The notes beneath the pieces are model-generated. The model had not been told where the DNA came from, searched no databases, and saw nothing but the letters and a program-made list of their open reading frames with translations. Positions 7,604 to 57,776 of a DNA stretch of 64,000 nt are shown here, piece after piece. Position numbers and translations under genes: made by a program. This stretch comes from Sedimentisphaerales bacterium (lineage in GTDB: Bacteria > Planctomycetota > Phycisphaerae > Sedimentisphaerales > SM23-30). The stretch is taken from the NCBI GenBank assembly GCA_963663805.2, contig CAXXMR010000003.1:192001-256000 (forward strand), read 5' to 3'. Each line of letters opens with the position of its first letter. Within the stretch, counting starts at the first letter, position 1.

Positions 7604-8479
7604 ATGAAAAAAACAATTAGCTTTGGTATTTGTGTATTATTTTTTGTTTCCGCAGTTGCGTTCGCTTCGCCGTTTGCCACGCAAGTGGTAGATTTCGGGG
7701 GTGTTTTTGGCAACTCGCCTTATGATGACCCCGCGTCTGTACTTGGAAAACCTTCAACGGACTTCTATGATCCCTGGGGCGGCTGGTCCGGAGGCACTAC
7801 TGACAGAAAGGTCAAGTTGGTAGAGCCAGCTTATAATGTTGATCAGGCCAGCAAAAAACTCATCACGACGCTGAATGACTACAGCTATATCGTCGTCAGT
7901 TTCGATCACCAGGTGGAAGATGATCCGGCAAATCCCTATGGTATTGATTTTCTGGTGTTTGGAAACGCCTTTTATGTTGGAGACGGATTTGTCCACGACG
8001 GCACCGACATGGGTACATACATGCTGACAGGCGGTGCGTTTACGGAAGATGTCTTGGTCTCCGTCAGTCAGGATGGTCAAAACTGGTACACTTATCAGAA
8101 CGGGCCTTACGGCGATACAGCATTCCCGACCCATGCTTACCAATGGGATCAAGCGCAATACAACGCCACCGGCGACGGCTGGACCAACGAACAGATGGAC
8201 TTCACCAAGCCGGTGAATCCTGCGTACAACGATACACTGATAAACGGAGGTATTTCCGGAGCCGATGCGATTGCTCTCTACGAAGGTTCCGGAGGCGGGA
8301 CAGGGTTTGACCTGGCCGAGTCCGGTTTTGAGTGGATTCAGTACATTAAAGTGGAAGGCACGACTGGATTTGCCGGTGGTGAGATCGATGCGTTTGCCGA
8401 CGTCGCCGTTCCCGAGCCGGCAACGATGGCGCTGCTGGGGCTGGGCGGGTTGATACTGAGAAGATATCGGAAGTATTAA
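7604..8479 (+). CDS. PEP-CTERM surface protein with a BtuH-like putative cobalamin-binding domain
   Basis: Signal peptide; C-terminal VPEP-TM-RRYRK. IVVSFDH, DFLVFGNAF, VSQDG..WY and FDL...IQYIKV resemble Bacteroides BtuH-type domains (from memory). First gene after the riboswitch. Confidence 0.75.
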   Translation: MKKTISFGICVLFFVSAVAFASPFATQVVDFGGVFGNSPYDDPASVLGKPSTDFYDPWGGWSGGTTDRKVKLVEPAYNVDQASKKLITTLNDYSYIVVSFDHQVEDDPANPYGIDFLVFGNAFYVGDGFVHDGTDMGTYMLTGGAFTEDVLVSVSQDGQNWYTYQNGPYGDTAFPTHAYQWDQAQYNATGDGWTNEQMDFTKPVNPAYNDTLINGGISGADAIALYEGSGGGTGFDLAESGFEWIQYIKVEGTTGFAGGEIDAFADVAVPEPATMALLGLGGLILRRYRKY

Positions 8480-8571
8480 GTGTCTATTCATGTGTTAGCT
8501 GAAGCCTTGTTACATTTAAGCTTTTATTTGCTATGAACTTTTTTAATCCCCAAGAAATTATGAGGAAAATC

Positions 8572-9441
8572 ATGAAGAAAATTATTTGTTTAATGGTAAT
8601 AAGTTGTTTTGTGTCGTCTGCAAACGCTGCTTTTAGTTTTAGCGATATCCCCAGTGGTAATTGGGCAGGCAGCGGAAGCAATCAGACGGGAATAATCATT
8701 CACTGGTCCGCGCCGGAATATTTCAATCTGGCCTATAGCTGGGGAGGTAGTACTCCGATGCCGGCCCCCAGCCAAGATATTTCGATGGCATGGGGCTATC
8801 GTTATGACGGTGAAGCAAATGTCAAAGATATGATGTTTGCTATCGCACAGGCCGATCCGCGACTATATCTGCACATTTACAACCAACCAACTCCGGGTTT
8901 GGCGACCCTGGGTATAGGTTATGATCTGGATGGTGATGGGTTCGGTTTGAGCGATGGGACCACGACGTATGGATCTAACGATTTTACTGATGGTGTTCTC
9001 AACGCTCATTCTATTACGGATGGTGATTACTATCTTTCGACTGATGATGATGATTTGTACTGGGGCGGCAATTACGGGGCGACTTGGGAATTGTGGCAGG
9101 AACAGAGCGGCAATGGTGGATTTTCTGCAGCTCCGGATCGAGGAAGTGAGGATTACTGGACCCCTAATGACATCTACTTTTCTACCGGTAGCCATGGTGA
9201 ATGGGATTATATTGCTGCCAATATCGGCATCTCCAGCCTGTCACTCGAAGATGGCTCATGGTTTGGCTGGTCCGTTGCTGCCGGTGGTTTAGATATGATG
9301 TTATTCGACGAGGGAACCATGGCCTGCCAAAACAACAAACAGGCACCGGTATTGCCGGTTCCCGAACCAGCAACGCTTGGCATGATAGTTCTTGGTGGGC
9401 TGAATTTGTTTGTTCGTAAAGATCGAAAGAAACATGGTTAA
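8572..9441 (+). CDS. PEP-CTERM surface protein (paralog of 10851..11711)
   Basis: Signal peptide, WAGSGSN...WGYRYDG...AIAQADPRL domain, VPEP-TM-basic tail. Confidence 0.8.
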   Translation: MKKIICLMVISCFVSSANAAFSFSDIPSGNWAGSGSNQTGIIIHWSAPEYFNLAYSWGGSTPMPAPSQDISMAWGYRYDGEANVKDMMFAIAQADPRLYLHIYNQPTPGLATLGIGYDLDGDGFGLSDGTTTYGSNDFTDGVLNAHSITDGDYYLSTDDDDLYWGGNYGATWELWQEQSGNGGFSAAPDRGSEDYWTPNDIYFSTGSHGEWDYIAANIGISSLSLEDGSWFGWSVAAGGLDMMLFDEGTMACQNNKQAPVLPVPEPATLGMIVLGGLNLFVRKDRKKHG

Positions 9442-9525
9442 ATACATTTTGCCTTATTTGTTTGGCCCACTCTTGGTGGCTTGGGAAGACAAAGGCTGTT
9501 TCTTTATTATAAAAAGGAAAAAACT

Positions 9526-10821
9526 ATGTCTAAAAAAAAGATGGCCATTAGTTGTGCCGCTACATCTTTACTGATAATTACATCGATGTTGGCATGGCCT
9601 CAGATGGCTGTAGCAGAGGTGGTATTGGGACCAGATTCCCAGGTGTTCCCCTCGGTTTCTGCCGATTTTGACAACTTTGGCAGCACCGTTGCGATCAGGG
9701 GCAATTATGCAGTCATTGGTGCCAGCCGCGATGAGAGCAACAATAACATTGGTTGTGCTTATATCTTTCAGCAAGATGTTAACGGGGTATGGAGGCAGGC
9801 AGCCAGACTGTTGGCCTCTGATGGGGAACCCAATGACCGTTTTGGTTATTCCGCGGCAATCAGCGAGGATGGTAGTTATATAGTTATCGGTGGCTTTAAA
9901 ACGAACGCGGCTTACGTATTTCATCGTGACGGTGACAATTGGACAGAGACAGCCAAGCTGACTGCGGCAACGGGCAGTTGTTTCGGTGAAGGCGTAGCGA
10001 TAAGCGGAGAATACGTAATTATCGGCTCGCGAGGTGAAGATGGTCGTACCGGTGCAGCATATATTTTCCAACGCAACGGTGACACCTGGACGCAGATGGT
10101 AAGACTTACCGACCCGGATTGCAATATAAACGACTACTTCGGCGGGAGCGTAGCAATCAGTGGCGATTACGCTGTTGTCGGAGCACCTAACGACAGCGTT
10201 CCATATACTTACACCGGTTCGGTATGCTTCTTCCAGCGCAACGGGGCCATCTGGGAGCGGATGTGCAGATTGAAAGCATCTGATCCTGCGAAGGATGACA
10301 AATTCGGCTTCTCGGTCGCTATCGAAGGCGATTACGCCGTTGTCGGTTCAGTTGGTGATGACGATACGGCGGATTGGGGCGGGGCCTTATATGTTTTTCA
10401 TCGCAATGATACAGAGTGGATCGAGGTTGCCAAATTGACTGCTCCTGATGCCCATAACTCTGACGGCCTTGGCTGTTCCCTCTCGATCAGCGGCAACAAC
10501 ATTGTTGCCAGTACCCATGCCTTCACAAGCAGTTACGGTGCCGTGTACGTTTACCACCGTGCGGGTAACGAATGGGGGCTGTTAGAGAAGTTCAAGACTT
10601 CTGACTCCTCCAGTTGGCCTACAACTTACGCTGCTATTGACAGGGAGAAAATTCTCATTGGTATGCTTGGTAACAATACTAACGGAGAATACGCCGGGGC
10701 AGCGTATTTTACGACAGTTCCCTATCCTGATGGGGATGTTAACCTGGATTACCGTGTAGATTTCCTGGATTTTGCTGTTATGACGGAGAACTGGCTCGAA
10801 TGTACGCTGGATTGTGATTGA
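9526..10821 (+). CDS. Secreted FG-GAP repeat beta-propeller with C-terminal dockerin-like domain
   Basis: Repeated FGxSVAISGxxxxxGA motifs; tail GDVNLDYRVDFLDFAVMTENWL. Confidence 0.85.
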   Translation: MSKKKMAISCAATSLLIITSMLAWPQMAVAEVVLGPDSQVFPSVSADFDNFGSTVAIRGNYAVIGASRDESNNNIGCAYIFQQDVNGVWRQAARLLASDGEPNDRFGYSAAISEDGSYIVIGGFKTNAAYVFHRDGDNWTETAKLTAATGSCFGEGVAISGEYVIIGSRGEDGRTGAAYIFQRNGDTWTQMVRLTDPDCNINDYFGGSVAISGDYAVVGAPNDSVPYTYTGSVCFFQRNGAIWERMCRLKASDPAKDDKFGFSVAIEGDYAVVGSVGDDDTADWGGALYVFHRNDTEWIEVAKLTAPDAHNSDGLGCSLSISGNNIVASTHAFTSSYGAVYVYHRAGNEWGLLEKFKTSDSSSWPTTYAAIDREKILIGMLGNNTNGEYAGAAYFTTVPYPDGDVNLDYRVDFLDFAVMTENWLECTLDCD

Positions 10822-10850: not shown

Positions 10851-11711
10851 ATGAAAAAACCGATTGTTTTAGTCTTTGTCTTTGTAACACTGGGAAGCAC
10901 TTTGCCTTCCTCGTGGGCTGACGCTATCTCAATGGATGATATTCAGTTCTGGACCGGAAGCGGCGACAATAGTGCTGCCATGATCGTACACTGGTCCGTG
11001 CCGGAAATCTTTAATCTTGCTTATACTGACGGAGAAACAACCCCAATGCCCTCTCCCATTCAGGATGTCACTATGGTATGGGGTTATCGATTTGACGGAA
11101 CCGTTAATGCTGAAAAGATGATGCTGGACATTGCCAGAGCTGACTCTCAATTGTATCTTTTTGCTGGCGGACAGCCGGGGCTGGGGGTCGCAATTTTCGG
11201 TATCGGTTACGATCTCGATAACGATGGATATGGATTGGCATGGAGCGAAGGCGAAACCTATACCAGTTCTGATTTCAGCAACGGATTCCTCGGAGGCCAG
11301 CCTTACGGTGACGCTGATATGTACTTGCCTACTGACCAAGACGATTTGTACTGGGGTGGCTGGTATGGACCGAATTGGGAATTGTGGCATGAAAGCGGCG
11401 GTGAAGGTGGATTCTTTATTGCGCCAGATAGCGGCCCAGATATCTACTGGACCGGTGATTTCTTTACTGGTGAGCATGGAGAATGGACATTCTCTCAGGT
11501 TGGTATATCCAGTATGAAGATTGAGGATGGATCGTGGGTAGGCTGGTCGATAGCGGCAGGCGGTCTTGATATGTATGCGTTACCGCCGGACGAAGGAACG
11601 TTAGCCTGGATAAATAATAAACAGGCTCCGGCTTTGCCGGTTCCTGAGCCGGCTGCAATTGTATTACTTGGTTTAAGTAGTTTAGCGTTAACAAGAAAAA
11701 ATTATAATTAA
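10851..11711 (+). CDS. PEP-CTERM surface protein (paralog of 8572..9441)
   Basis: DDIQFWTGSGDN...WGYRFDG; shares DDLYWGG, WELW and AAGGLDM...NNKQAP with 8572; VPEP tail. Confidence 0.8.
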   Translation: MKKPIVLVFVFVTLGSTLPSSWADAISMDDIQFWTGSGDNSAAMIVHWSVPEIFNLAYTDGETTPMPSPIQDVTMVWGYRFDGTVNAEKMMLDIARADSQLYLFAGGQPGLGVAIFGIGYDLDNDGYGLAWSEGETYTSSDFSNGFLGGQPYGDADMYLPTDQDDLYWGGWYGPNWELWHESGGEGGFFIAPDSGPDIYWTGDFFTGEHGEWTFSQVGISSMKIEDGSWVGWSIAAGGLDMYALPPDEGTLAWINNKQAPALPVPEPAAIVLLGLSSLALTRKNYN

Positions 11712-11723: not shown

Positions 11724-13097
11724 ATGAAAAATTTAGTTACATTAATTCTGGTATTGATATGTGCATCTTTCTCTTGGGCCCAGGTAGATAATAACTGGTC
11801 CCAGTTTCATTCTGGTAATGATTTTGCCGGAGCGACAACGACGGGGCCTGATCTTGGGGTTTATAGCACTCCTCGTTTTCAAGTCGGCAGCGATCTAGGG
11901 GCCGGATTCATGGGTGCCAGTGCTTCTGCGCCTGTCGTGATGAATAATATGGTTTATTGTTATTCCGCCAGCGGCGCAGTTAACGCATTCAGCGAACTTG
12001 ACGGCAGTCAGTTATGGACATCACCGGTAGCAGAAGCCTCGTTTGGTTCATGGTCATCGCCATCAGCAGATTCGGCCAGTAACTCTGTTTTCATGGGTTC
12101 TGGAGAGTACGTATACTGCCTTGATGCCGATACCGGCGTCGAAAAATGGAGCTATCATCTCAGCACCATGGGCAGCCATGGTGAAACTTACGCCAGTGTT
12201 GTGAATGCTTCTGTTTCGATTGTGCCGGACCTGGGCCTTAACGGAGAAGGGCTGGCGTATATGCACACTTATGGTAGTTTCGGTGGTGGTACAAGACTTC
12301 ACGCGATCAATGTTGCTGACGGTAGTCAAGCCTGGACTCTCGACCTGACAGGTCAGGGGCAGGGAGCGGTAGCCTACAATTCAGCCGAGAATCTGGTTTA
12401 TACAACGGTAGGTACCGAAGGTGGCTGGGCGTCGGGCCGGGGCGGCATAGTTGCTATCGACGCATCAACCGGAATAATTAATGTAGGTTGGGGCAATAAC
12501 GGATACAGCGTTGGTTCTTTCGAGCCTTTGAGCTTTGGCGGAATCACTTATGACAGTGTTAATGACCGGGTAATCGCCGGCGGTTATGACTTTTATGATT
12601 ACGCCGGTATGCTTGTTGCAGACGGTTCCGACGGTTCGACCATTTCCTATACAGGCGATAATGGGGCCCCTTCAGGCGACTATACGCCCACGCTCGGCGA
12701 TGACGATCTGGTCTATGCCTGTGGGGCAGAATTTCAGGATGGCCCGTTCGTATTTGCTTATAATACCGTGACCGGACAGGAAGTCTGGAAATCGGCACAG
12801 GGCTGGGGCGGCTGGAATCAATCGCTGGCTTACGCACTCGACATGGGTGACGGCACTGATGTAATCTACGCATCCGACCAGTATGGAACTAAAATCGGGA
12901 TGTTTGATGCTGATACCGGAGCACTCTTGGAGACCATAGATGGTTATGGAGGTCAGTTTGCTTTAGCCAACGAAAATCTTTATACAATTTCTGGTGGACA
13001 GTTAGTAGCTTTTGGTCCGAATGTGGTTCCTGAGCCCGCTACGATGACTTTGCTGGGTTTAGGCGTTATCACTATGTTACGTAGAAAACGTGCTTAA
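11724..13097 (+). CDS. PQQ/BamB-like beta-propeller PEP-CTERM protein
   Basis: Repeated AxDxxxGxxxW blades (LDADTGVEKW, NVADGSQAW, TVTGQEVW); VPEP-TM-RRKR. Confidence 0.8.
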   Translation: MKNLVTLILVLICASFSWAQVDNNWSQFHSGNDFAGATTTGPDLGVYSTPRFQVGSDLGAGFMGASASAPVVMNNMVYCYSASGAVNAFSELDGSQLWTSPVAEASFGSWSSPSADSASNSVFMGSGEYVYCLDADTGVEKWSYHLSTMGSHGETYASVVNASVSIVPDLGLNGEGLAYMHTYGSFGGGTRLHAINVADGSQAWTLDLTGQGQGAVAYNSAENLVYTTVGTEGGWASGRGGIVAIDASTGIINVGWGNNGYSVGSFEPLSFGGITYDSVNDRVIAGGYDFYDYAGMLVADGSDGSTISYTGDNGAPSGDYTPTLGDDDLVYACGAEFQDGPFVFAYNTVTGQEVWKSAQGWGGWNQSLAYALDMGDGTDVIYASDQYGTKIGMFDADTGALLETIDGYGGQFALANENLYTISGGQLVAFGPNVVPEPATMTLLGLGVITMLRRKRA

Positions 13098-13195
13098 TTA
13101 ATTTTGAGGCCCGGTCGCAACCGCAAAATCAGTATCTGTAAATGTAGATGTAGATTAGAAAATAAAGATTTCGACAAGTTAAAATGGAGATCATT

Positions 13196-14827
13196 ATGCG
13201 ATTAACTATTTTTTCAGTATTTACTGTTTTTGTGGTGGCGATCGGTCCTGGGGCGCATGAGACTCATGCGTCTGACATCTGGGCGGATCATATTGTTTAT
13301 AACTGGGACGGTTCAACCGCGACGCATGCTCCCGGCAGTAATGACAACATGACTCACGGTCCATTTCATTCCAGTGCGCTCTGGAGTGATCCCAACGCGA
13401 TACTGGGTAAGCCCTGTACACTGGACAGGGACGATACGGAATGGGACGGAGGCAATTTCCGTGAGATCAACATGGTCTGGCCAGCATGGTACAATGGTGT
13501 TAGTGATTACAATCTGGATGGCACACACTATACGGATGGTTACCCCGAATTAACCCGTAACAACGGATGCGGACTGAAGAAAAGCGGCTCAGAAATCGGG
13601 CAGATTGTAGTCGAATTTGATGAAGTTATCGAAAACGATTCGCACAACCCTTACGGGATCGATTTCATTGTTCATGGCAATCCGTTCTTTGCCACAGGCA
13701 TTTATGTTTATGAAGATTCAGACATGAACACATATACGCTGACGGCTTTTGGTGGAGGCGGTGAATTTCCGCCCAGCGGAGCCGGTGCGGTCTTTTCGGA
13801 ACCTATAACAATAAGCGTTGCTCAGTCGCTTGACGGCCCGTGGTATACTTTTACTGATGCTCCGGGTGATGTGGTAGTCACTGCCGACAATTATTTTCCG
13901 ACCCAGCCGTATAAATGGGACAGCAGTAATCATTGCTGGATTGGCGAAGAACTCGACTGGACCAAACCGGTCAATCCCTGGATTGTCAATTATTTCGGTA
14001 ATGAGACAGTAGCGGATGCCATCAGGCTGTACGCCGGCTCCGCGGGTGGAACTCCTTTTGATCTGGACTGGCTTTCAGACCAGTACGGCAATCCTGTCGG
14101 CCTGGAATGGATAAAGTACATCAAATTCAGTGACCCGGATAATTATCAGGGCGAGATATGTGCCGCCGCGGACGTAGCCCCGGTAAAACTCGGTGATCAG
14201 ATGTCGGTTACACCCTTCAATCTGGAGGTCGGTATAAGCCAGCTGGACTTTGTTGATCCTGAAAATGAATCAGCCAAACTTGCTGAAATTCTCGTTGTTG
14301 ACACTGAGCAAGCCCTGGCATTTCAAGTAACCGCCATAGATGATCTTTCGAATTATGCCGAGGCCCCACCCCAGCCGTTGGCAGCCTATAATGTGACGGC
14401 GATAGTAATCTTGAGCCCTTTTACCCAGGCGGCGGCAGTTGCGGATTTAAGTTTTTATGTTGGAGATACCTATAATGGTGACGGCAGTGATCTGGCGATT
14501 TATCAATGGATTGATGAGAGCTGGACGGTGCTGATGCCCTCAGGCTATGATACCTTCGGCAAATTGCTTAGTGTGACTGATGTTGATGTGTTTGAGGTTT
14601 TTGTTATCGCTGAAACCCTGATTTCGCCCGAAGGTGATATTAATCAAGATTACCGGGTAGATATGCGGGACTTTGTATTTCTGGAGCGATTTTGGCTCAT
14701 GGACATAACCAATGAACCTGACGAATTGGCACAAAGAACAGATTTAGCCGAAGATGGTTTTATTAATATTATGGATATGGCTGTTTTGGTGGATAACTGG
14801 CTTAAATGTACTTCTAATTGTAAGTGA
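13196..14827 (+). CDS. Secreted BtuH-like domain protein with C-terminal dockerin-like domain (paralog of 7604)
   Basis: Shares LGKP, NPYGIDF..GN.F, FPT..Y.WD, TKPVNP and ADAI.LY.GS.GGT.FDL with 7604. Tandem dockerin-like repeats GDINQDYRVD / DLAEDGFIN..D. Confidence 0.78.
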   Translation: MRLTIFSVFTVFVVAIGPGAHETHASDIWADHIVYNWDGSTATHAPGSNDNMTHGPFHSSALWSDPNAILGKPCTLDRDDTEWDGGNFREINMVWPAWYNGVSDYNLDGTHYTDGYPELTRNNGCGLKKSGSEIGQIVVEFDEVIENDSHNPYGIDFIVHGNPFFATGIYVYEDSDMNTYTLTAFGGGGEFPPSGAGAVFSEPITISVAQSLDGPWYTFTDAPGDVVVTADNYFPTQPYKWDSSNHCWIGEELDWTKPVNPWIVNYFGNETVADAIRLYAGSAGGTPFDLDWLSDQYGNPVGLEWIKYIKFSDPDNYQGEICAAADVAPVKLGDQMSVTPFNLEVGISQLDFVDPENESAKLAEILVVDTEQALAFQVTAIDDLSNYAEAPPQPLAAYNVTAIVILSPFTQAAAVADLSFYVGDTYNGDGSDLAIYQWIDESWTVLMPSGYDTFGKLLSVTDVDVFEVFVIAETLISPEGDINQDYRVDMRDFVFLERFWLMDITNEPDELAQRTDLAEDGFINIMDMAVLVDNWLKCTSNCK

Positions 14828-15600
14828 AACAAAAACCCGGATTTACATTAATAGAACTACTGGTGGTGATAGCCATCATAGCTTTGCTGGTATCAATCCT
14901 GCTGCCGGCCCTGGGGCGTGCTAGAGCTGCAGGCAAGCAAATTGTTTGCCTTAGTAATGTACGTCAGATGTGCCTGGGAGTTCAAACATATCTGGTTAAT
15001 AACAATGATTTTTTCCCGCCCGCTGCGAGGGATACATTTGGAATGCCAGGCAGCGTTCAATACGCCTGGGATTTCATTCGCGAATGGAATCATCTAGCTA
15101 ATACCTGGGATTATAAGCCTGGGCTGATTTGGGAAGGTCAGGGTAATGTTGAGATTCAGCAGTGCCCGGCCTTTACCGGACCAGCCATGTGGGAAGGGGA
15201 TAAATATACCGGCTACAACTACAACACCAGCTATATTGGCTGGGCCGAACCAGTGGGAGGATGGTCAGCGTTAGATTATATACCAACCGCACGCATAACG
15301 GATATCAGGCAGCCTGATAAGTGTGCTGTTTTTGGTGACGGGCAATATGGAAAAAACCAGGCTAATAAGTTTATGCGGGCCCCCTGGGAAAATGAGCGGG
15401 AAAAGGATATCAGCAATTCAACGCGTTATGCCGGAACCCAGGGTTTTCGACACCTCGAGAGCACCAACGTTGGTTTTGCTGATGGGCATTGTCAGTCATT
15501 GAAAGACAGGCATACCAATACCTACAGCTTCATCCAGGGTTATATCAGCAGCGATTGCGGCTTCCTCTCAGAAGATAATTCCCTGTATGATCTCAAATGA
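14824..15600 (+). CDS. Prepilin-type N-terminal methylation / H-X9-DG (DUF1559-type) protein, B12 cassette
   Basis: [14 protein letters not shown] cleavage motif; H-LESTNVGFA-DG. Confidence 0.9.
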   Translation: MKQKPGFTLIELLVVIAIIALLVSILLPALGRARAAGKQIVCLSNVRQMCLGVQTYLVNNNDFFPPAARDTFGMPGSVQYAWDFIREWNHLANTWDYKPGLIWEGQGNVEIQQCPAFTGPAMWEGDKYTGYNYNTSYIGWAEPVGGWSALDYIPTARITDIRQPDKCAVFGDGQYGKNQANKFMRAPWENEREKDISNSTRYAGTQGFRHLESTNVGFADGHCQSLKDRHTNTYSFIQGYISSDCGFLSEDNSLYDLK

Positions 15601-16754: not shown

Positions 16755-17530
16755 ATAAATATCTAATACTGCCTTTTTTAACGACGGTACAATTTCTGAC
16801 CCGCATACCCGTTCCAAATGGAAACAATCCTTCAGATCCGAAAGTGTTTCAGCGGGTTGTATTGTTTATGCCGCTGGTCGGAATGCTGGTAGGATTGATT
16901 ACTGCCGGTGTTTTTGTGCTGTGCCAGTTTTTCTTTAATGCTTTATTGGCCGCGACCATTGCAATTGCTGTGGAGCTATTGGTCACGGGTGCGTTTCATG
17001 AAGACGCGGTAGCGGATTACTTTGACGCGTTTGGCGGCGGCTGGACAAAAGATGATATTTTGAGAATACTAAAGGACAGCCGAATAGGCAGTTACGGGGC
17101 GACGTCCCTTATTATGGCCCTGATTTTACGGATTCTGACAATAGCTTGTCTTGATGGAATTCTGTTCCAGATAGTTGTGATTACTGCCTCAGCCTCTATT
17201 GGACGGCTTGCTACCGTTATTTCAGTTGGAATTTTAAAGCCATTAGAATCCAGAGAAGGTCTTGCCAAAGAAGCCGGCCATAATGCTAAAATATCGGATG
17301 TCATCATCGCAGCCTTATTGATTTTACCCGTATTTGTTATTTGGGGATATTTAACGCCAATTAAAATGCTGATATCGCTGGTTGTTATTGCGGTTTTGTT
17401 GGCAATCGTATTACGAAAAATAAACAAACTTATCGGAGGCATTACAGGCGACTGCCTTGGTATGATTTGCTACATGGCCCAAATAATTGTTTTGTTAGTC
17501 TCCGCGGCAGACTGGAGGGGATTGGATTGA
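16751..17530 (+). CDS. cobS: Adenosylcobinamide-GDP ribazoletransferase (cobalamin synthase)
   Basis: FLTRIP, TGAFHEDAVADYFDA, KDSRIGSYG, GGITGDCLG. Confidence 0.95.
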   Translation: MNKYLILPFLTTVQFLTRIPVPNGNNPSDPKVFQRVVLFMPLVGMLVGLITAGVFVLCQFFFNALLAATIAIAVELLVTGAFHEDAVADYFDAFGGGWTKDDILRILKDSRIGSYGATSLIMALILRILTIACLDGILFQIVVITASASIGRLATVISVGILKPLESREGLAKEAGHNAKISDVIIAALLILPVFVIWGYLTPIKMLISLVVIAVLLAIVLRKINKLIGGITGDCLGMICYMAQIIVLLVSAADWRGLD

Positions 17531-21332: not shown

Positions 21333-21377
21333 ACCCTTTCTTCAGAGTATTTATGAGTAAAATAGTTTTTTCTGACA

Positions 21378-41458: not shown

Positions 41459-41483
41459 TTTGCGGGTTCCCTTTTTAAAAATC

Positions 41484-44602: not shown

Positions 44603-44628
44603 TTTTATAATTCCCATCTGTTTGTTTC

Positions 44629-47640: not shown

Positions 47641-47646
47641 TTGCTA

Positions 47647-49731: not shown

Positions 49732-49735
49732 AAAT

Positions 49736-49749
49736 TTAGGCTAGCCTTA
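49736..49749. promoter_or_regulatory. Candidate DtxR-family operator at the feoB start
   Basis: TTAGGCTAGCCTTA with perfect core AGGCTAGCCT; similar to 50564-50581. Confidence 0.6.
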
Positions 49750-49766
49750 TTTTGCATTCAAAAAAA

Positions 49767-50534
49767 TTATATTTTTTCCACTTCAATATTATCAGCTTCT
49801 TCTTTACGAATAGAAAGATGATAGCCCTTGACTTTTACTTCAATGGGATCACCCAGCGGTGCCACACGTTCGACCTCAACCACAGAGCCCCTGCTGATGC
49901 CCATTTCAACCAGTCTTTTGGTTACCGAGGCTTTTTTTTTAATCTTCTTAACTATACATTTCTCGCCTTTGGAGATATCGTTCAAGGACGTAAGTTCAGT
50001 GGTTTCAGACATTTTGCTTTTTTCTTTCTCTAAGTTCTCTATTCCCGCACCAAGACAAATCTGGCACTGCTTTATATTGCACGAACCTCTCTTTTCAAAA
50101 TAATCGTGGAACTTTTCAACCATGTCATTGCCGCAGCGGGGGCAGGCCTGAATGAATTCCGTAAAAGCAATTAAGCGTTTTATGAGCTTCTCCGGTATAA
50201 CATGCTCTATCTTGCAGGCTCCGGTTTCGGCTACCTTGGCATCGGCACCAAGTATTTCTACAAAAAAGTCTCTCAGTATTTCATGCTTACGAATGATAGC
50301 CTTGGCCTGCTCCAGACCTTTGGAGGTCAGAGTAATTACCTCGTAAGGCTGATAATTGATATGCTCCGTCCTGGCAAGGGCCTGCAAAGCGGTTGTGACC
50401 GAACCTGCCTTGACCCCAAGGTATTTGGCAATATCTTTGGCGCGAACCCCGCCCTTCTCGGAAATGATATTAAATATCGCTTCCAGATAGTCTTCCAGAC
50501 TCGCACTTAAATGTTCTGCCTGAGCCATTATCAA
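49767..50534 (-). CDS. DtxR/MntR-family metal-dependent repressor with C-terminal FeoA domain
   Basis: EDYLEAI, RKHE.L..FF, ACKIEH; FeoA RLVEMG...APLGDP...LSIR. Confidence 0.92.
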   Translation of the reverse strand: MIMAQAEHLSASLEDYLEAIFNIISEKGGVRAKDIAKYLGVKAGSVTTALQALARTEHINYQPYEVITLTSKGLEQAKAIIRKHEILRDFFVEILGADAKVAETGACKIEHVIPEKLIKRLIAFTEFIQACPRCGNDMVEKFHDYFEKRGSCNIKQCQICLGAGIENLEKEKSKMSETTELTSLNDISKGEKCIVKKIKKKASVTKRLVEMGISRGSVVEVERVAPLGDPIEVKVKGYHLSIRKEEADNIEVEKI

Positions 50535-51530: not shown

Positions 51531-52328
51531 GTGTGCAAATTAAATGCGAGTAAAAGAAAAATGGCCAGTACATCATCATCGGCAACATATGGCGAACCAG
51601 TCCTTAAAGAAAAAGTTGCGGAAACCCTCCGAGGTATGATCCGTAGCGGCAAAATAAGAGGTGGGCAGCGAATTGAGCAGGCTGTGATTGCCAAAGAGAT
51701 TAAGGTTTCCATAGCGAAAGTTCGTGAGGCTATAGGTGTAATAGAACGGCAGGGGTATGTAGATTGGGTATCTGGTATGGGAGCGTTTTGTAAGCGGTAT
51801 ACAGTTAGAGATCTGCGTGATTGCATGGAGGTTAGAAAGCCCCTTGAAGTTCTTGCTGTGGGTTTAGCTGCAGAAAACGCCACTTCTGAATTAGTGCGGA
51901 AACTTCAGCTTCTTAATGATCAAATGCACAAGTATCTTCGAGACGAGGGCGGTAATAGTTACACTCAAGAGTTTGAGCCCGAATTAATATCAACTCATAT
52001 TTCTTTTCATCAGGCTATCGTTCAGGCTTCCGGAAATCAATATCTAATCGGTATCCTGAACGATAAACATATCATCGTTGATCTTTTGAACTTAATTGGT
52101 TTTTCCAAGTTATCAAGCCCAATTGTCAAAAAAATAAACGAGAAATTTATGCGGGATTCTGAAACAGACAACAGGCAGTTTGAAGGATGTCGCTCTCGTC
52201 ACGCAGCACTGATTGAAGCAATAGAGTCTGGCAAGACGGCTGCTGAAGGCGTAATGGCGTTACACCTGGATTATGATAAATGGTTTGATCAACTTGAGGA
52301 AATATATGGGGATGAGCCCTTGTATTGA
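51531..52328 (+). CDS. GntR/FCD-family transcriptional regulator
   Basis: I.SG...GG.RI.....A....VS...VREA; FH..IV.ASGN; H..L..AI. Confidence 0.9.
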   Translation: MCKLNASKRKMASTSSSATYGEPVLKEKVAETLRGMIRSGKIRGGQRIEQAVIAKEIKVSIAKVREAIGVIERQGYVDWVSGMGAFCKRYTVRDLRDCMEVRKPLEVLAVGLAAENATSELVRKLQLLNDQMHKYLRDEGGNSYTQEFEPELISTHISFHQAIVQASGNQYLIGILNDKHIIVDLLNLIGFSKLSSPIVKKINEKFMRDSETDNRQFEGCRSRHAALIEAIESGKTAAEGVMALHLDYDKWFDQLEEIYGDEPLY

Positions 52329-52446: not shown

Positions 52447-53409
52447 ATGAAGATTGAAAGAGCGTGTGTGTTGGGTATTGTGTTGCTGGCAGGTTTTGTT
52501 TCTGTGGGTATTGCTGATGTGGTGACTGACGGGTTGTATCTTTATACTGATGCTCGCACTCCCGGTCCGATTCCTACGGAAAAATGGGCTCCGGTCAAAG
52601 ATGGAGTCGGTAATGATATTGGTCCCTGGGGTCCGTTATATGGTATCGGTGCGGATGGTGCGTATATTCCGACGTATCAAACTGCTACTCGTACGACAAA
52701 TAATGGTACCGCTTATGTTCCCCATTATGATTTTTCGTTTAGTTCCGGTGTGGGTGGTGGGGTTATAGATTTTGCCAGTGCTTTCAAGCCTGATTATGAC
52801 GAGGACTGGACGGCGGAAATATGGGTTTATGTGGATGCGACTTATGTGGGTGAAAGTCAGCCGTGTTTGTGGAGTAATCAATCTCTTTCGGCAAATGGTA
52901 TGAGAGTAAATCTTGCTAACTGGGATAATAACGGCACAACTATGGTAGCGATGGAAGCCCGTGACAACACTAATCCTGATAAGGTTACCTGGAATAATAC
53001 CGCCAATAACGGTGGTGCGGAATGGGCAACGGGGAAGTGGATGCAGGTTGTGGCGTCGTATGACGGAACCACCGGCCAGCAACCGGTAATGGATCTTTAT
53101 GTTAATGGTCAATTAGCACGTCACTATATTGATACGGAAGCTGTACCGGCTACCGCAAACTTTACCGCAATTGGCAGAAATTCTATCGGAGCTCGCGGCA
53201 GATATGATAATCCTGACGTCTCAGTGAATAGAAACTTTCTTGATGGCGGCATTTCTGTTTTTCGGCTTTATGAAAAGGCTCTTTCGGCAGCGGAAGTCGA
53301 ACAGAATTATAACAGTGATGCATCCTGGATGATCGTTCCTGAGCCGGTCAGTTTGATTTTTGTTAGTTTGGGAGGTGCGTTGATAGCTAGAAGGAAGAGA
53401 AGTAAATAA
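52447..53409 (+). CDS. LamG-like (ConA) domain PEP-CTERM protein
   Basis: PDYDEDWTAEIW, QSLSANGMR, EARDN, RLYEKALS; VPEP-TM-RRKR. Confidence 0.85.
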   Translation: MKIERACVLGIVLLAGFVSVGIADVVTDGLYLYTDARTPGPIPTEKWAPVKDGVGNDIGPWGPLYGIGADGAYIPTYQTATRTTNNGTAYVPHYDFSFSSGVGGGVIDFASAFKPDYDEDWTAEIWVYVDATYVGESQPCLWSNQSLSANGMRVNLANWDNNGTTMVAMEARDNTNPDKVTWNNTANNGGAEWATGKWMQVVASYDGTTGQQPVMDLYVNGQLARHYIDTEAVPATANFTAIGRNSIGARGRYDNPDVSVNRNFLDGGISVFRLYEKALSAAEVEQNYNSDASWMIVPEPVSLIFVSLGGALIARRKRSK

Positions 53410-53480: not shown

Positions 53481-56400
53481 ATGAGAAATTGGAATTGGTT
53501 GTTAATTTTGGTGTTAGCAAATTCAGTTGCTTTTGGTTCAGATTTATGGGTTACGCACTATCCTGATTCTGACAGTACTCAGATTTGGATAGATGCTGCT
53601 GATTTTGGTTCTAAAACGGCAGATTTTCAGGAAGATACTGCCGCGAGCGACACATTAAGCAGACATGCTTATTATTTTCCCAATTATGATGGTCCGTCAA
53701 CATTTCAGCCGTGGTGGGCGGAATACACAATAGCAGCGGTCGATGTGCCGGGTGTTACGTTGGATGGCAAGACCTGGTATTTCTGGGCTCGGGCCTCTCA
53801 GCCGATTTCCGGAGCGGAAGAATCGGATGTGGTATTTGTCAAAGGTGATCCGGGTGATGGCACGGGTGGTAGTTGGTATGACGATGCTTTGGCAACGGTT
53901 GATGTCGCTACGGACAGGATATTGAATGATCTGGCGTCCGTCGGCGGGGTTGGTGCCTGGGTCTGGTGTAGTACGGAGACCGAGTCTGTTGTTTCAAAAG
54001 AGTTCAATCTGGACGAAAATAATGAGATTGTTTTCCGGATTTCAGAGCGAGAAAGCGGTTTGGCAAATGCGCGTATCGATGCAATGATGTGGACAGATGA
54101 TCCGAATTTTGTGCCTGCTGATTCTGATTACCTGGGCACCTCATTATATGGTATCAGGCAGGTATATGATGGTCGTGACGCGGGGGAAATACCCCATATT
54201 TTTTGGACTGCACAAGACGGCTATGGTCAGGATGCCATTATAAATGGTGAAGGTCCTGGTAGTGACAAGCCGATTTACTACCCGGTAGAAGGCGGGGGCG
54301 GATACGATTTTAGCTATACTCTCGATGCTTTGGATCACAACAGTGACAGCGGTTCAATTGTCGATTTGGGCCAAGAGTTTTTGCCGGACTATGATGATGA
54401 TTTCAGTGTTGAGGTATGGTTCCGGGCGGATGGTTGTCCGGCGGGGAATCAGCAGCAGGTGCTCTGGAGCACACAAAGCCTGGCGGGTAACGGTATGCGT
54501 TTGTATATCTATGACTGGAGTGGAGCCAGTGGTAAATTTGGGATAACTTTGGAGGCTCGTGATAATACGGGCAGTAAAGTGCAGTGGGCCACATCTGATG
54601 AAAATGGGGGTGACAAATATGATTATGGCCAATGGATGCAGGTGGTGGCGGTTTACGATGCTGGTGCGGCGGGGTCGGGTATTCCGAATATGAAGATATA
54701 TACCAACGGCGAGCTGAAGCGAGATGTGGATCATACCTCGGCAGTTCCGGCGGATACGGATTTTGTTGATACCGTTCGGGGAGCGTCTTCGGTTCTGGGG
54801 GCGAGAGGTGTTCCTAATGACATTCGATTTGCCGCAAATAATGACCGCGAGTATTTCGATGGCGGTATCGCTCTGGTGCAAATATTTGAAAAAGCCGCAT
54901 CTTCTTCAGAAATATTAGCTTCTTATAATGAGAATAAGTTGTGGATTATTGATGAGGCTCCTTATGATCCCGCGGTTGATTTGCCATTTGATGGTTCTAA
55001 TGGAGTTGAAATACAGTCTGGTCTGATTTTTAAGCTTGACGCAAAAAGTGCCGGCGATCTGCCTCATTTGGCTTGTGTTAATGAGCAAACGGGGTCAACC
55101 GGTGGCGTGGAAAGTATGGGCCCTTCGGCGTCTTTGTATTTGCCAGAGTATTACGAAACTGTAAATGGTGCCGGCTATGAATTAGATTACACAACTGATT
55201 CCGGCGGTTATCTAGATCTTGGTAATGTTCTTCCCGATTACGACGAACCTTTTACTGTTGAAATGTGGGTAAGGCCTGACGGGATGACCTCGGATTGCAT
55301 GCAACAGGCTCTTTTTAGTTCTCAGGGTTTGTCCGCTAATGGCGCGCGTTTGGCTATTGCTGACTGGGACCTTGACGGCAAATATAGCATTGTATACGAG
55401 ATGCGTGACAATGTCGGCTCTAAGGTCAACTGGAATGCCTGGGATGAGAACAAGGACGAGTATAATGTAAGTCAATTTTACGATGTTGGAGAATGGATTC
55501 AGATCGTGGCGGTGTATACCCCGGATGCTACCGGGTTAGGCTGGCCTAATATCAGGATATACACCAACGGTGAGCTCAAACTGAATAAAGATTGTGTCAG
55601 TACTTTGCCAACCGATTATGATTTTGTTGAGTTTGGAGGGCAGGGGCAAATAGGATCGCGTGGCAAACAAAGCGACACAAATACAAGTTCTACGAACAGA
55701 CATTATTTCAATGGCGGCTTTGCCTTGATTCGCATGTATGAAAAAGTTCTAAGTGGTGCTGAGGTCCAGAGCAACTATGATTACAATAAAAATGAAATTA
55801 TTGTTAATCTGCCTTATGATCCCTCCGTTGACCCGGTATATACTCCACCGGTAATATTGCCAAAGGTGAGTTTTTCGCTTGTGCAGGAATATGACGGCAG
55901 GTATCCGGGAGTTTTGAGTGATGTGAACTGGGACCCAACCGTCGAAAGCGTTACCGGTGATATTTATAGTATTGGTCCTCTACCTAGATGGCCTCAGCAT
56001 AGCGTAGATGCTTATTACTTCAGCAACGCGGTTAATGACAGTGTTGAGGATCCCAATAGCTCCGGCGGCGGAATGGAATTGGGTGACGCATTTGTGCCCG
56101 ATTACAACGATGATTTTACCGTTGAGATATGGGTTTCCCCTGATGAAATTCCAGCAGATAATCACCAACAGGTACTTTGGGGTACTCAAGGGCTTTCTGG
56201 CAACGGCATGAGATTGTATGTATATGATTGGAGTGGAACTTGGGAAGATTGGTATGGCGTTGCTTTTGAGGCCAGGGATAACTCTGGTGAAAAGGCCAAA
56301 TATACTGTTTCGGCGTCTTCTGTTACTCAGCAGCATTCCGAGGGCTGGAAGCAGTTTGTCATTGCTTATGATGGAGCAACAAATAAAAAGCCTGTGATGA

Positions 56401-56885
56401 AAATGTTCGTCGATGGACAACCATTCTCGCTGGCAAGCTCGAACGTTAATGATCCATTGCCTTTGGATTTGGATTTCAAAACGGTGAATGCCAGGCAAAT
56501 GCTGGGTGTTCATGGCTTCCCGGAAGAGGCAGTCACTACAGCCAAGGATGTCAGGCAGTATTATCAAGGCGGTATGGCACTGGTAAGAGTTTATGACCGC
56601 AAGCTGGCTGATTCCGAAATTTTGGTGAACTACAACAATGATGCCGGTTGGGTGCAGTCGTTGGCCACATATAATTCCGCAGCGTTCGATTTGGGATTAG
56701 TCCCGGAAATCACTAAGGCGGATATTAATGGCAACCGATATATCGGCTTGGTTGATTATTCGATGCTTGCTTATGACTGGCTGGCTTCGCCGGTAGTAAA
56801 TGAAAATGCGGACATCACAGGTGATGGTAATGTCAATGTTGCTGATTTGGAAAAGCTGGCTGAATATTGGCTGACTGAATTTTAA
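53481..56885 (+). CDS. Secreted protein with three LamG-like repeats and C-terminal dockerin-like domain
   Basis: Three copies of PDY..F.VE.W...Q.L..NG.R...E.RDN; tail ADINGNRYI / ADITGDGNVN..DL..LA..WL. Confidence 0.85.
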   Translation: MRNWNWLLILVLANSVAFGSDLWVTHYPDSDSTQIWIDAADFGSKTADFQEDTAASDTLSRHAYYFPNYDGPSTFQPWWAEYTIAAVDVPGVTLDGKTWYFWARASQPISGAEESDVVFVKGDPGDGTGGSWYDDALATVDVATDRILNDLASVGGVGAWVWCSTETESVVSKEFNLDENNEIVFRISERESGLANARIDAMMWTDDPNFVPADSDYLGTSLYGIRQVYDGRDAGEIPHIFWTAQDGYGQDAIINGEGPGSDKPIYYPVEGGGGYDFSYTLDALDHNSDSGSIVDLGQEFLPDYDDDFSVEVWFRADGCPAGNQQQVLWSTQSLAGNGMRLYIYDWSGASGKFGITLEARDNTGSKVQWATSDENGGDKYDYGQWMQVVAVYDAGAAGSGIPNMKIYTNGELKRDVDHTSAVPADTDFVDTVRGASSVLGARGVPNDIRFAANNDREYFDGGIALVQIFEKAASSSEILASYNENKLWIIDEAPYDPAVDLPFDGSNGVEIQSGLIFKLDAKSAGDLPHLACVNEQTGSTGGVESMGPSASLYLPEYYETVNGAGYELDYTTDSGGYLDLGNVLPDYDEPFTVEMWVRPDGMTSDCMQQALFSSQGLSANGARLAIADWDLDGKYSIVYEMRDNVGSKVNWNAWDENKDEYNVSQFYDVGEWIQIVAVYTPDATGLGWPNIRIYTNGELKLNKDCVSTLPTDYDFVEFGGQGQIGSRGKQSDTNTSSTNRHYFNGGFALIRMYEKVLSGAEVQSNYDYNKNEIIVNLPYDPSVDPVYTPPVILPKVSFSLVQEYDGRYPGVLSDVNWDPTVESVTGDIYSIGPLPRWPQHSVDAYYFSNAVNDSVEDPNSSGGGMELGDAFVPDYNDDFTVEIWVSPDEIPADNHQQVLWGTQGLSGNGMRLYVYDWSGTWEDWYGVAFEARDNSGEKAKYTVSASSVTQQHSEGWKQFVIAYDGATNKKPVMKMFVDGQPFSLASSNVNDPLPLDLDFKTVNARQMLGVHGFPEEAVTTAKDVRQYYQGGMALVRVYDRKLADSEILVNYNNDAGWVQSLATYNSAAFDLGLVPEITKADINGNRYIGLVDYSMLAYDWLASPVVNENADITGDGNVNVADLEKLAEYWLTEF
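54600..54772 (+). repeat. 173-bp near-identical direct repeat (copy at 58298-58470)
   Basis: 172/173 identical; the single mismatch is 54743 vs 58441. Confidence 0.92.
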
Positions 56886-56913
56886 GGTTGAAATTAGTCG
56901 TGATTTACAGAGC

Positions 56914-56944
56914 GGTTCCTGCCCCTGTGATTGGGGCAGGAACC
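56914..56944 (+). other. 12-bp intergenic stem-loop before the prepilin gene
   Basis: GGTTCCTGCCCC-TGTGATT-GGGGCAGGAACC, no U-tract. Confidence 0.65.
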
Positions 56945-56963
56945 TAAGCTTCGGAGAACTGAA

Positions 56964-57776
56964 ATGAAAAGACAAAAAGGCTTTACTTTGGTGGAATTAC
57001 TGGTGGTGGTGGCAATTATTGCACTATTAGTCAGTATATTGTTACCCGCTCTGGGGAAAGCCCGGGCAGCCGCCAAGCAAACTGTTTGTGCTAGTAACTG
57101 CAAGCAGTGGGCTATTGCTCTGCACGTTTTCGGCGTGGATCATGACGATAATTTTCCCCGCAGGGTTGAACCGGACAGCCCGCCATATATGTACGAATTG
57201 ACCAATCCTTATCAATATGCTTACCAAAAGAATGGTGTGACATATTTTGATAATGTAAAGACGTTTATTGAGCCTTACGTTGGCATGCCAAAGTTTGTGT
57301 TATGTCCTGATATGAAATGGAGCAACTATCGTGACCATGATTGGGATTGGCAATGGCAGCATTGGGGGGTTAAGGGTGGCGATTATAGTTTCTTTGTTAC
57401 ATATCCTGATATTCTTATCGAGAAATATCCCAATCATATAGTGGCCAATCATTTCAAGGTTGGCAAGATTTCGGTCCTTAATCCGGAGATTTCGGTAATG
57501 GGCGATCATGTGCGGTATTTTGGTCCGGCCAGCACGAGCGGCAGTGGTTATGCCGGGTGGATGTACGCTCATCCGTGGAAATTTCAGACGGGTTTAGAGC
57601 AGGAGCCCAAGGGGATGAATGCGGCTAAAGTTGATGGAAGTGTTGAATGGGTGAGTACTGAGTATCTGGAGCCGTTTATTGTATATACTGGTGGTCAAGG
57701 TGACGTGATGTATTGGCCTAAAGTTGTGAAAACCAGTAGTGTTTTGCCGATTCCGAGTTTGGGGAGTGGCGGATGA
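56964..57776 (+). CDS. Prepilin-type / H-X9-DG-like protein, glycan cassette
   Basis: Start [14 protein letters not shown]-terminal H...[11 protein letters not shown]. Confidence 0.88.

Follow-up and report, generated by a model that had tools for sequence, protein, structure and literature searches.

Background

The cobamide relay of Bacteroides, in which BtuB operates with the lipoproteins BtuG, BtuH and BtuJ, and the Sus-like loci, which devote one locus to each substrate, are the closest described systems to the genes considered here. We analyzed a stretch of 64,000 nucleotides (hereafter the window) from a Sedimentisphaerales bacterium of the phylum Planctomycetota (assembly GCA_963663805.2, contig CAXXMR010000003.1, positions 192,001 to 256,000 of the forward strand) that holds five three-gene cassettes. 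Each of these encodes a protein with a PEP-CTERM tail, a paralog of that protein with a dockerin-like tail, and a type IV pilin-like prepilin of the DUF1559 family, and each lies in its own nutrient-related gene context. Each component can be assigned to a family already described (riboswitch, PEP-CTERM, dockerin, type IV pilin, BtuH-like fold, DUF4465). The combination is new in the sense that neither it nor an order-wide tie between the cobalamin riboswitch and a DUF1559 prepilin was found in the searchable open literature, where our searches also retrieved no paper linking DUF1559 with dockerin.

The B12 loci described below resemble the Bacteroides relay in being riboswitch-controlled and in carrying several surface B12 binders near BtuF/BtuCD. 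The shared domain of the first cassette has the predicted fold of the BtuH C-terminal domain, and a second B12 module in the same genome carries DUF4465, the BtuJ family. The first locus also encodes beta-propeller proteins, a propeller being the N-terminal domain of BtuG according to the accessible part of PMC8941943. The two systems differ in anchoring, which is by PEP-CTERM or dockerin-like tails in the cassettes and by lipid in the relay. They differ as well in that the cassette locus has no BtuB and the genome no detected TonB, with a DUF1559 prepilin as the conserved partner. Similarly, the organization of one locus per substrate with a regulator, LamG or CBM glycan binders, glycosidases and an inner-membrane transporter recalls Sus-like loci, but a pilin with PEP-CTERM and dockerin proteins stands where the SusC/SusD pair would be.

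Three further systems share parts with the cassettes. Competence (Com/type IV) pili provide the example of a retractile filament that imports a macromolecule, DNA, across the outer membrane through a secretin. The genome examined here has secretins and PilT as well, but the cassette ligands would be vitamins, haem, metals and glycans carried on separate binding proteins, and import by this route is a proposal. With the pseudopilus of type II secretion (GspG-K) the cassette pilins share a prepilin leader, Glu5 and a GspG-like N-terminal helix. They differ in scoring only ~35 bits against a GspG cut-off of 88.85, in being twice the size of GspG with a large H-x9-DG domain, and in occurring as ~76 copies scattered over substrate loci, not in one operon. 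The cellulosome offers a parallel for the two-repeat, calcium-loop dockerin tails, which score above the Pfam cut-off in four of the five cassettes; the organism is nevertheless a diderm in whose genome no cohesin was found, and many of the orthologous tails comprise a single repeat with a W-L-x-C-T-x-x-C end.

In planctomycetes, pili-like fibres of the crateriform structures bind dextran that is later seen inside the cell, and the authors speculate that uptake proceeds via these fibres (Boedeker et al. 2017, PMC5394234). The accessible text of that paper names no fibre proteins or genes. The cassettes are a candidate molecular basis. According to the available portion of PMC10632474, one planctomycete has 68 DUF1559 paralogs, two of them essential, and the function of the family was still called unknown in 2023; the part of the Kiritimatiella description that is open (PMC5148204) reports that no TonB-type uptake systems were found. 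The locus ties members of a very large prepilin family to specific nutrients, most clearly to B12, and bears on TonB-poor bacteria that have no known outer-membrane route for B12, haem or oligosaccharides. The cassettes appear to be nutrient-specific surface capture loci, and there is a fair chance that they hide a new principle of outer-membrane import.

Results and discussion

Composition of the five cassettes

The triads are real, non-random and conserved modules, each of which keeps its own pilin lineage. The larger open reading frames (ORFs) of the window (>=100 aa) were scanned with Pfam, and the cassettes were numbered c1 to c5 in window order. An earlier inspection of the letters and translations (the sequence-only reading) had placed five triads here, and all five were recovered where it placed them, by Pfam together with a tail alignment for c3 and a VPEP motif recognized by eye for c5. 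Its starts at 7604, 13196, 28686 and 56964 are ATGs inside longer ORFs (beginning at 7589, 13184, 28425 and 56931) and are likely the better starts.

The PEP-CTERM gene leads the cassette in all five cases. On the forward strand, c1 consists of a PEP-CTERM protein (7604-8479; ORF 7589-8479) and a dockerin-tailed protein (13196-14827; ORF 13184-14827), both with a BtuH-like predicted domain, and a prepilin (14824-15600). Cassette c2 consists of a PEP-CTERM protein with a His-rich domain (27098-27892), a prepilin (27893-28660) and a dockerin-tailed paralog (28686-29471; ORF from 28425). In c5, a LamG protein with a PEP-CTERM-type tail (52447-53409; Laminin_G_3, E 1e-14) precedes a three-fold LamG protein with a dockerin tail (53481-56885), to whose repeats it is 36% identical, and a prepilin (56964-57776; ORF 56931-57776). 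The other two lie on the reverse strand, c3 with its PEP-CTERM protein at 41546-42268, a protein with a dockerin-like tail at 39968-41485 and a prepilin at 39131-39946, and c4 with the corresponding genes at 46421-47071, 44629-45582 (dockerin-tailed paralog) and 45605-46348 (prepilin).

All-vs-all BLASTP of the window proteins confirmed that each PEP-CTERM protein shares its N-terminal domain with the dockerin partner of its own cassette and that this domain differs between cassettes, as had been noticed from the translations. The paired domains align at 35% identity over 302 aa in c1 (E 4e-38), 23% over 257 aa in c2 (E 2.5e-7), 30% over 100 aa in c3 (E 1e-6), 48% over 197 aa in c4 (E 7e-56) and 36% over 288 aa in c5 (E 4e-42). 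Matches across cassettes are limited to the PEP-CTERM tails, the dockerin tails and the pilins.

The PEP-CTERM family PF07589 was matched above the cut-off by 7589-8479 (27.9 bits), 11724-13097 (26.4 bits), 41546-42268 (25 bits) and 46421-47071 (21.1 bits) and below it by 8533-9441 and by 27098-27892 (17.0 bits, cut-off 20.7); in 10851-11711 and 52447-53409 the VPEP tail was recognized by eye. The features of PEP-CTERM/exosortase sorting are present, and the genome has two exosortase genes. Dockerin_1 (PF00404, two calcium-binding repeats) was found above the cut-off in c1 (29.2 bits), c2 (39.3 bits), c4 (24.9 bits) and c5 (23.7 bits). The c3 protein 39968-41485 has no dockerin match by Pfam and only a weak DNRLRE-domain match below the cut-off, and its two-repeat tail lines up with those of the other four cassettes. 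Many tails of the c1 family are of another kind, seen in the C-termini of the c1-orthologue alignment and at window sites 10730-10821 and 14740-14827, with one calcium-loop repeat and a conserved Trp-Leu-x-Cys-Thr-x-x-Cys end after a Cys-Gly-Asp...His-Pro linker. This looks like a distinct C-terminal tag, not a classical two-repeat dockerin.

All five pilins carry the prepilin motif PF07963 (29-38 bits; 33 in c1 and 37.8 in c5) with a G-F-T-L-[IV]-E-L-L motif that includes Glu5. DUF1559 (PF07596, cut-off 23.3) scores above the cut-off for c2 (33.9), c3 (27.7) and c4 (27.3) and below it for c1 (18.0) and c5 (18.1); the c2 pilin also matches the H-X9-DG model TIGR04294 at 26.5 bits, and H210-x9-D220-G221 is kept across the c1 pilin family in the alignment. 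The model of the c1 pilin has a long helix at residues 9-59 (~50 residues) followed by a beta domain, and its best Foldseek matches are type IV pilins, although weak ones (3SOK FimA, E 0.03, TM 0.20-0.32). When residues 26-258 of the c1 pilin were co-folded with residues 31-547 of the c1 dockerin protein and two Ca ions, with no controls, the scores were 0.00, 0.36 and 0.00 against a mark of 0.32, an outcome that counts neither way.

Genome-wide association of pilins and tagged proteins

As the three families are abundant, their adjacency could in principle be due to chance. Sets for the whole genome were compiled with a crude ORF caller. Pilins and dockerin tails were recognized by HMMs trained on the five examples of each in the window, and PEP-CTERM by a regular expression, which yielded 76 DUF1559-type pilin ORFs, 152 dockerin-tailed ORFs and 73 PEP-CTERM-like ORFs. 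Adjacency was defined as same strand with a gap of <=300 bp, and the chance level was taken from 200 random relocations. A pilin adjoins a dockerin-tailed ORF in 37 of 76 cases (random mean 4.1, maximum 10) and a PEP-CTERM ORF in 11 of 76 (random mean 1.2), while 24 of the 73 PEP-CTERM ORFs adjoin a dockerin-tailed one (random mean 3.6). With the tails removed, 26 of the 73 PEP-CTERM ORFs retain a homologue among the dockerin-tailed ORFs, the best of which lies <=10 kb away in 18. The relocation test, the paralogy that is confined to each cassette and the orthology of whole modules across families of the order refute a chance origin, whose probability we regard as negligible, and the claim that triads exceed the number expected from family abundance was borne out.

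Strict triads, defined as a homologous PEP-CTERM/dockerin pair plus a pilin, number 15 in the 4.75 Mb genome. Four are in the window, where c2 is a fifth triad missed by the threshold, and the window is thus an unusually dense island of triad modules. The adjacency and triad counts indicate that the widest pattern is that of a pilin with a dockerin protein, the PEP-CTERM paralog being present in a subset.

The B12 cassette and its relatives

The connection with a specific nutrient is clearest for B12, where the modules combine B12-binder folds or families with riboswitch control across the order. A cobalamin riboswitch heads c1 (6963-7167, forward strand; RF00174, full model, 72.7 bits against a gathering score of 31.5). 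The c1 domain was searched for in 151 genomes of the same order (E <=1e-5) and matched in 91, many of the weaker matches being to the tail only. All 20 of the best c1-domain loci (19 from other genomes) have a cobalamin riboswitch 5' on the same strand. In 20 of 20 loci from 20 other genomes a pilin orthologous to that of c1 (31-47% identity along the full length) comes after the c1-domain gene, adjoining it directly in 19 and standing one gene away in the other; the c1-domain gene has a dockerin-like tail in 19 of the 20 other-genome loci.

The model of the c1 PEP-CTERM protein (mean pLDDT 83.5) retrieved only 7BIZ and 8BLW chain B by Foldseek at E <=1e-3. Structure alignment gave Z 12.8 with 7BIZ_A (rmsd 3.2 A, 137 aa, 25% identity, chain residues 316-592) and Z 12.0 with 8BLW_B (rmsd 3.4 A, 148 aa, 22% identity, chain residues 391-660), and the next best match had Z 9.8. 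The entry 7BIZ is BtuH2, whose C-terminal globular domain binds B12 and is also present in BtuG1, as described in the accessible part of PMC8941943. On this structural evidence the assignment of the shared c1 domain to the BtuH C-terminal B12-binding fold is well grounded, and cobamide binding is predicted.

Between its PEP-CTERM and dockerin genes c1 contains four more genes on the forward strand. Two encode further PEP-CTERM proteins (8533-9441 and 10851-11711) that are 54% identical to one another, and phmmer of 10851-11711 against the Protein Data Bank (PDB) gave no match. The others encode an FG-GAP beta-propeller with a single dockerin-like C-terminal repeat that matches the c1 and c2 dockerin tails (9481-10821; FG-GAP_2, E 4e-73) and a PQQ/BamB-like beta-propeller with a PEP-CTERM tail (11724-13097; PQQ_2, E 3e-18); in the PDB sequence search the latter matched BamB-type propellers only and no BtuG. 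Homologues of 8533-9441 stand just 5' of the c1-domain gene in four relatives (L021, L022, L027, L029), and dockerin-tailed propellers related to 11724-13097 adjoin the pilin in two (L028, L081).

The only other cobalamin riboswitch of the genome (contig C14, 101970-102156) heads a second type of module, with a DUF4465 PEP-CTERM protein, a dockerin-tailed protein, a pilin and a BtuD-like ATPase. The DUF4465 protein (G000:C14:100857-101624) matches PF14717 at 175 bits (E 2.5e-51), the B12 complex 9HMU (E 4.7e-29) and 9FCT (E 5.7e-26); among the window proteins DUF4465 has no match. Binding of B12 in vitro has been shown for proteins of this family, some of them from related phyla (PMC13398666), in a paper whose accessible text makes no reference to pilin, PEP-CTERM or dockerin. 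It had been proposed that there is one cassette per nutrient, and the gene contexts are nutrient-specific; the count is nevertheless a loose one, as the genome has two different B12 modules.

Of 150 genomes of the order, 145 contain RF00174, most of them a single copy, and 148 of the 180 matches, all from other genomes, were surveyed. A c1-domain match lies <=3.5 kb 3' on the same strand in 61 of these 148 (58 of 121 genomes). From the remaining 87 riboswitch loci 39 were sampled, and 20 hold a complete second-type module, with a DUF4465-like PEP-CTERM protein, a homologue of the C14 dockerin protein and a pilin orthologous to that of C14 (42-55% identical). Three more hold a partial one (contig end or hidden by the ORF filter), and the rest of the sample has cob genes, BtuF/BtuD or large enzymes. 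BtuF- and BtuD-like genes lie directly 3' of the pilin in second-type loci L070, L071 and L188. Among the matches surveyed, pilin modules for B12 are what most often lies behind a cobalamin riboswitch in the order.

The two module types are related beyond their riboswitch, in that hhalign identifies their dockerin proteins as homologues (probability 99.3%, E 4.8e-20). In a tree of 81 pilins, including 69 other pilins of the genome, the B12 pilins form two well supported clades (0.996 for the c1 type and 0.998), and a joint clade (support 0.871) excludes the 69 others. What is conserved at the core is thus a cobalamin riboswitch followed by a BtuH-like dockerin protein and a B12-clade pilin. 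That the clade tracks the ligand alone was dropped, as it also tracks the homologous dockerin partner.

The same clade bears on the reading that the globular domain of the pilin itself binds the ligand, with the two paralogs as accessories, which would follow the name SBP_bac_10 ('solute-binding protein family 10') that Pfam gives to PF07596. The single clade of both B12 pilin types and the strong conservation of their globular parts would suit such a role. Clade membership does not single out the ligand, however, since it goes with the dockerin partner as well; the two B12 pilins are 34% identical, barely above the 28-32% that they share with the pilins of other cassettes, and Foldseek matched the pilin model to no binding protein. 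We consider this reading improbable.

Outside the order, contigs were searched with a profile of the pilin alignment, which mostly listed matches to the shared N-terminal helix, and 17 loci with longer matches were examined. A riboswitch stands 5' of the pilin relative in two of the 17, one in a metagenome-assembled genome (MAG) labelled Candidatus Kuenenia and the other in a MAG labelled Chthoniobacteraceae, where two PEP-CTERM genes lie between riboswitch and pilin.

Cassettes for metals, haem and glycans

The neighbouring genes that had been read by eye were identified as described: the riboswitch and cob genes of c1, a Fur-family regulator heading c2 (26105-26536, forward strand; FUR, E 3e-10), haem genes with c3, DtxR and FeoB with c4, and a GntR/FCD regulator heading c5 (51531-52328, forward strand; Pfam) with glycosidases. 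For the c2 regulator, which had been given as Fur/Zur, NCBIfam does not separate PerR, Fur and Zur.

The c2 domain occurs in 45 of the 151 genomes. At least 17 of 24 c2 loci have the full order of c2-domain protein, pilin orthologue (44-77% identical) and dockerin paralog, and 13 of the 24 have a Fur-family homologue within flanks of +/-1.5 kb. Some have a dockerin-like tail in place of PEP-CTERM on the first protein, so that one and the same domain can bear either tag. Nine of the 151 genomes (eight besides the genome studied) contain the c4 domain, and in all nine loci an orthologous pilin (40-66% identical) lies beside the dockerin paralog. Seven of the nine have, directly after the dockerin gene, a homologue of a fourth c4 gene (43904-44647, reverse strand), which encodes a putative lipoprotein with no Pfam or NCBIfam match; FeoB is present in three and a DtxR-like gene in five. 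For the c2 and c4 PEP-CTERM proteins the ESM Atlas returned generic PEP-CTERM clusters only. Locus L058 contains an orthologue of the c3 protein 39968-41485 with a pilin orthologue 57% identical, and its complete genome (G021) has the c2, c4 and c3 modules within ~13 kb, clustered as in the window.

In the 16 further loci of the genome that were scanned with Pfam, one is the C14 B12 locus and the other triads occur in sugar-utilisation settings. Their neighbours encode LacI, AraC or GntR regulators, GH130, GH2, GH38 and glucoamylase-like enzymes, sulfatases, LamG/CBM proteins and SSF, MFS or ABC transporters, and neither c5 nor the other sugar-locus triads scanned contain a SusC/SusD pair or a TonB-type receptor.

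These settings also bear on a role in adhesion, aggregation or extracellular storage under nutrient stress that would involve no transport across the outer membrane. PEP-CTERM proteins have been linked to exopolysaccharide and flocculation. Weak floc_PepA matches were obtained with NCBIfam, and BtuJ1 is described as an extracellular vitamin reservoir in the available part of the preprint 10.1101/2025.07.01.662609. In the genomes studied, on the other hand, the modules sit in uptake and salvage operons beside BtuF/BtuD, ChaN, FeoB and sugar transporters, and their riboswitch-linked placement is conserved, so that a role limited to adhesion or storage seems very improbable.

The outer-membrane step

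The sequence-only reading had found no TonB-dependent receptor in the 64 kb, and the Pfam scan of the window ORFs likewise detected no TonB receptor or Plug domain. The whole genome has one PF00593/PF07715 gene, on contig C8 and not near a riboswitch (G000:C8:107972-113374; L208), whose neighbours in the same set encode a periplasmic protein of the YfiR-like type and a hybrid histidine kinase (NCBIfam TOL_0244, TOL_0243, 'HK near YfiR-like'). As a candidate BtuB it was rejected, since it belongs to this TOL_0244/YfiR-like/kinase signalling set. The assembly is 88% complete, and within it there is no match to TonB_C (PF03544).

In the order as a whole, 52 of the 151 genomes have no PF00593 match, and genomes such as G005, G011, G019, G029 and G042 have a B12 module and no such match. 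The comparison of receptors and riboswitches covers 149 typed receptor matches from other genomes, with 84 further receptor matches and 32 riboswitch matches outside it, and a same-strand TonB-type receptor lies <=10 kb from the riboswitch in 1 of the 148 surveyed. TonB-type receptors are thus scarce and almost never riboswitch-linked in the order, among the matches surveyed. A direct comparison is provided by genome G001 of the same family, where one riboswitch is followed by genes for a CobC-like protein, CobT, CobS, a BtuB-like receptor (TIGR01779, E 1e-104, below cut-off), ExbB/TolQ-like and ExbD/TolR-like proteins, TonB, BtuF, BtuD, BtuC and CobQ. This is the operon frame of the window, with the receptor set in the place of the window cassette.

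On balance, this genomic setting makes it slightly more likely than not that each cassette is a nutrient-specific acquisition module at the outer envelope in which the pilin supplies the outer-membrane step. Two paralogous Sec-exported binding proteins would capture the nutrient outside the cell, one sorted by PEP-CTERM/exosortase and the other carrying a calcium-type dockerin-like repeat. The module-specific DUF1559 pilin-like protein would be an obligatory third part, built into a type IV filament machine, and the filament would provide the step performed by BtuB/TonB or SusC in other diderms, with nearby periplasmic binding proteins and ABC, ECF or Feo transporters completing import. Several loci have BtuF and BtuD directly 3' of the pilin, and this ties the pilin to the import side. 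The genome has 6 secretin genes, 4 PilT-family ATPases above cut-off and ~8 PilB/GspE-type ATPases in addition to its exosortases.

Several observations weigh against this acquisition module. The routes can coexist, since the other riboswitch of G001 heads a pilin module of the second type that includes BtuF, BtuD and one more gene, and the pilin module is accordingly no simple replacement of BtuB. At least one TonB-type receptor (1-9 each) is kept by 99 of the 151 genomes. The earlier proposal that the triad fills the BtuB/SusCD slot is supported by the genomic context (the operon frame of G001, no TonB_C match and a single receptor that belongs to a signalling set) and qualified by G001, which has both systems, and by the receptors of most other genomes. 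TonB could also sit in the unassembled part of the genome, given its 88% completeness, and an unrecognised porin could carry the ligand. The dockerin-tailed ORFs far exceed the pilins in number, and no dockerin ORF lies closer than 8 kb to 18 of the 76 pilins, so the pairing is not universal. A profile of 20 c1-family members retrieved no BtuH chain from the PDB sequences at E <=1, giving marginal dockerin matches only, and the likeness to BtuH hence rests on the fold. Finally, the BtuF-like Peripla_BP_2 gene of the window is cut into 18090-18467 and 19953-20612 by an IS66 transposase (18560-20038), which may leave the genome's B12 operon partly non-functional; elsewhere the genome has a Peripla_BP_2/FecCD pair that is intact (G000:C13:270296-272110).

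In a more specific and tentative version, which we favour, the module would work as a 'fishing' pilus that is displayed and retracted. The dockerin-tagged binder would be carried on a short fibre with the cognate pilin as its subunit or at its tip, and PilT-driven retraction would draw the loaded binder to or through a secretin, where the ligand would be handed to BtuF, ChaN or similar proteins, with the PEP-CTERM paralog as a fixed surface reservoir. Taken on its own, we regard this as less likely than not. Slightly more doubtful is its generalization, by which DUF1559 prepilins, which form the largest paralog family without an explanation in planctomycetes and their relatives, would be substrate-specific subunits of retractile pili that import B12, haem, metals and glycans on dockerin-tagged carriers through secretins, independently of TonB and as the basis of fibre-mediated uptake in Planctomycetes.

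An alternative that we rank about equally likely with the display-and-retract pilus, and that is also unlikely taken singly, confines the pilin to export and display. It would be a cargo-specific pseudopilin of a type II secretion machine, where it would select, expel or display its dockerin-tagged neighbour, and the nutrient would use another channel. The pilin N-termini do resemble GspG (TIGR01710, 26-36 bits, E ~1e-8 to 1e-9, below the cut-off of 88.85), with the match confined to the N-terminal ~58 residues. The side-by-side arrangement of dockerin-tailed proteins and pilins is in keeping with such a role. No cohesin (PF00963) was found in the genome, 88% complete, to receive the 152 dockerin-like tails, and the finding that orthologues can bear either PEP-CTERM or dockerin on one domain fits sorting or attachment tags. 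Export alone, however, leaves unexplained how a 1.3 kDa cobamide passes the outer membrane in the five receptor-free carriers of the B12 module named above, and BtuF and BtuD lie directly 3' of the pilin in several loci. Type II secretion systems are not known to use cargo-specific pseudopilins, and if the pilin only exports the binder this would be the first case of such dedicated subunits. If instead the pilin is needed for uptake, as the acquisition module would have it, the cassettes would represent a new principle of outer-membrane import, with a bearing on vitamin economics in gut, rumen and marine communities. With the B12 riboswitch, the B12-binder folds and BtuF/BtuD beside the pilin, the question can be tested with a single ligand by measuring simply growth or uptake.

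Neighbouring genes and other observations

Downstream of c1, genes for cobamide salvage and transport occupy 15744-25734 on the forward strand (Pfam), comprising CobT, CobS, a CobC-like protein, the BtuF-like gene split by IS66, CobO, a DUF1638-hydantoinase fusion and CobQ. The fusion (21378-24170) joins DUF1638 to a hydantoinase/GlmL-like ATPase, and in one relative a stand-alone DUF1638 gene lies directly 3' of the B12 pilin (L021:15347-16063). Just 5' of the cobalamin riboswitch, 2832-6092 encodes a secreted protein of 1086 aa that matches a beta-helix weakly. At the C14 locus, the position that BtuF holds in relatives is taken by a 174-aa acidic protein, with transposase-like fragments beyond (G000:C14:86000-97000).

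A ComF-like gene, with a double zinc ribbon and a phosphoribosyltransferase domain, is present directly 3' of the pilin in 4 of the 20 B12 loci of the first type that relatives contributed (L027:15245-16009, L028:5312-6079, L029:3884-4645 and L030:15440-16225). The ComF family is familiar from DNA-uptake competence systems.

The haem genes 3' of c3 (33233-39113, reverse strand) encode a ChaN-type haem-binding protein, a radical SAM-ECF S fusion, an ECF T protein, a double ATPase and a flavodoxin. In the fusion (35984-37969, reverse strand), a radical SAM enzyme of the ChuW/HutW-like type, which degrades haem anaerobically (TIGR04107, E 3e-85, below cut-off), is joined to an ECF S-like Trep_Strep membrane domain, and the ECF T, ATPase and flavodoxin genes come after it. 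The set may be an ECF transporter that imports haem and is coupled to opening of the ring.

The genes 5' of c4 (47233-50534, reverse strand; Pfam) comprise a DtxR repressor-FeoA fusion (49767-50534), directly 5' of FeoB, and DUF4405; shorter DtxR-like homologues accompany c4 in relatives. When L058 (G021:C1:2054000-2072000) is compared with window 26105-47071, the c2 genes are 74-86% identical across two families of the order and those of c3 and c4 41-66%. The excess identity of c2, together with the clustering of three modules, could reflect recent transfer of a micronutrient island. After c5, glycosidase genes extend over 57773-63413 on the forward strand (Pfam), encoding a LamG + GH18-like protein, a GH18-like protein and a GH1 enzyme.

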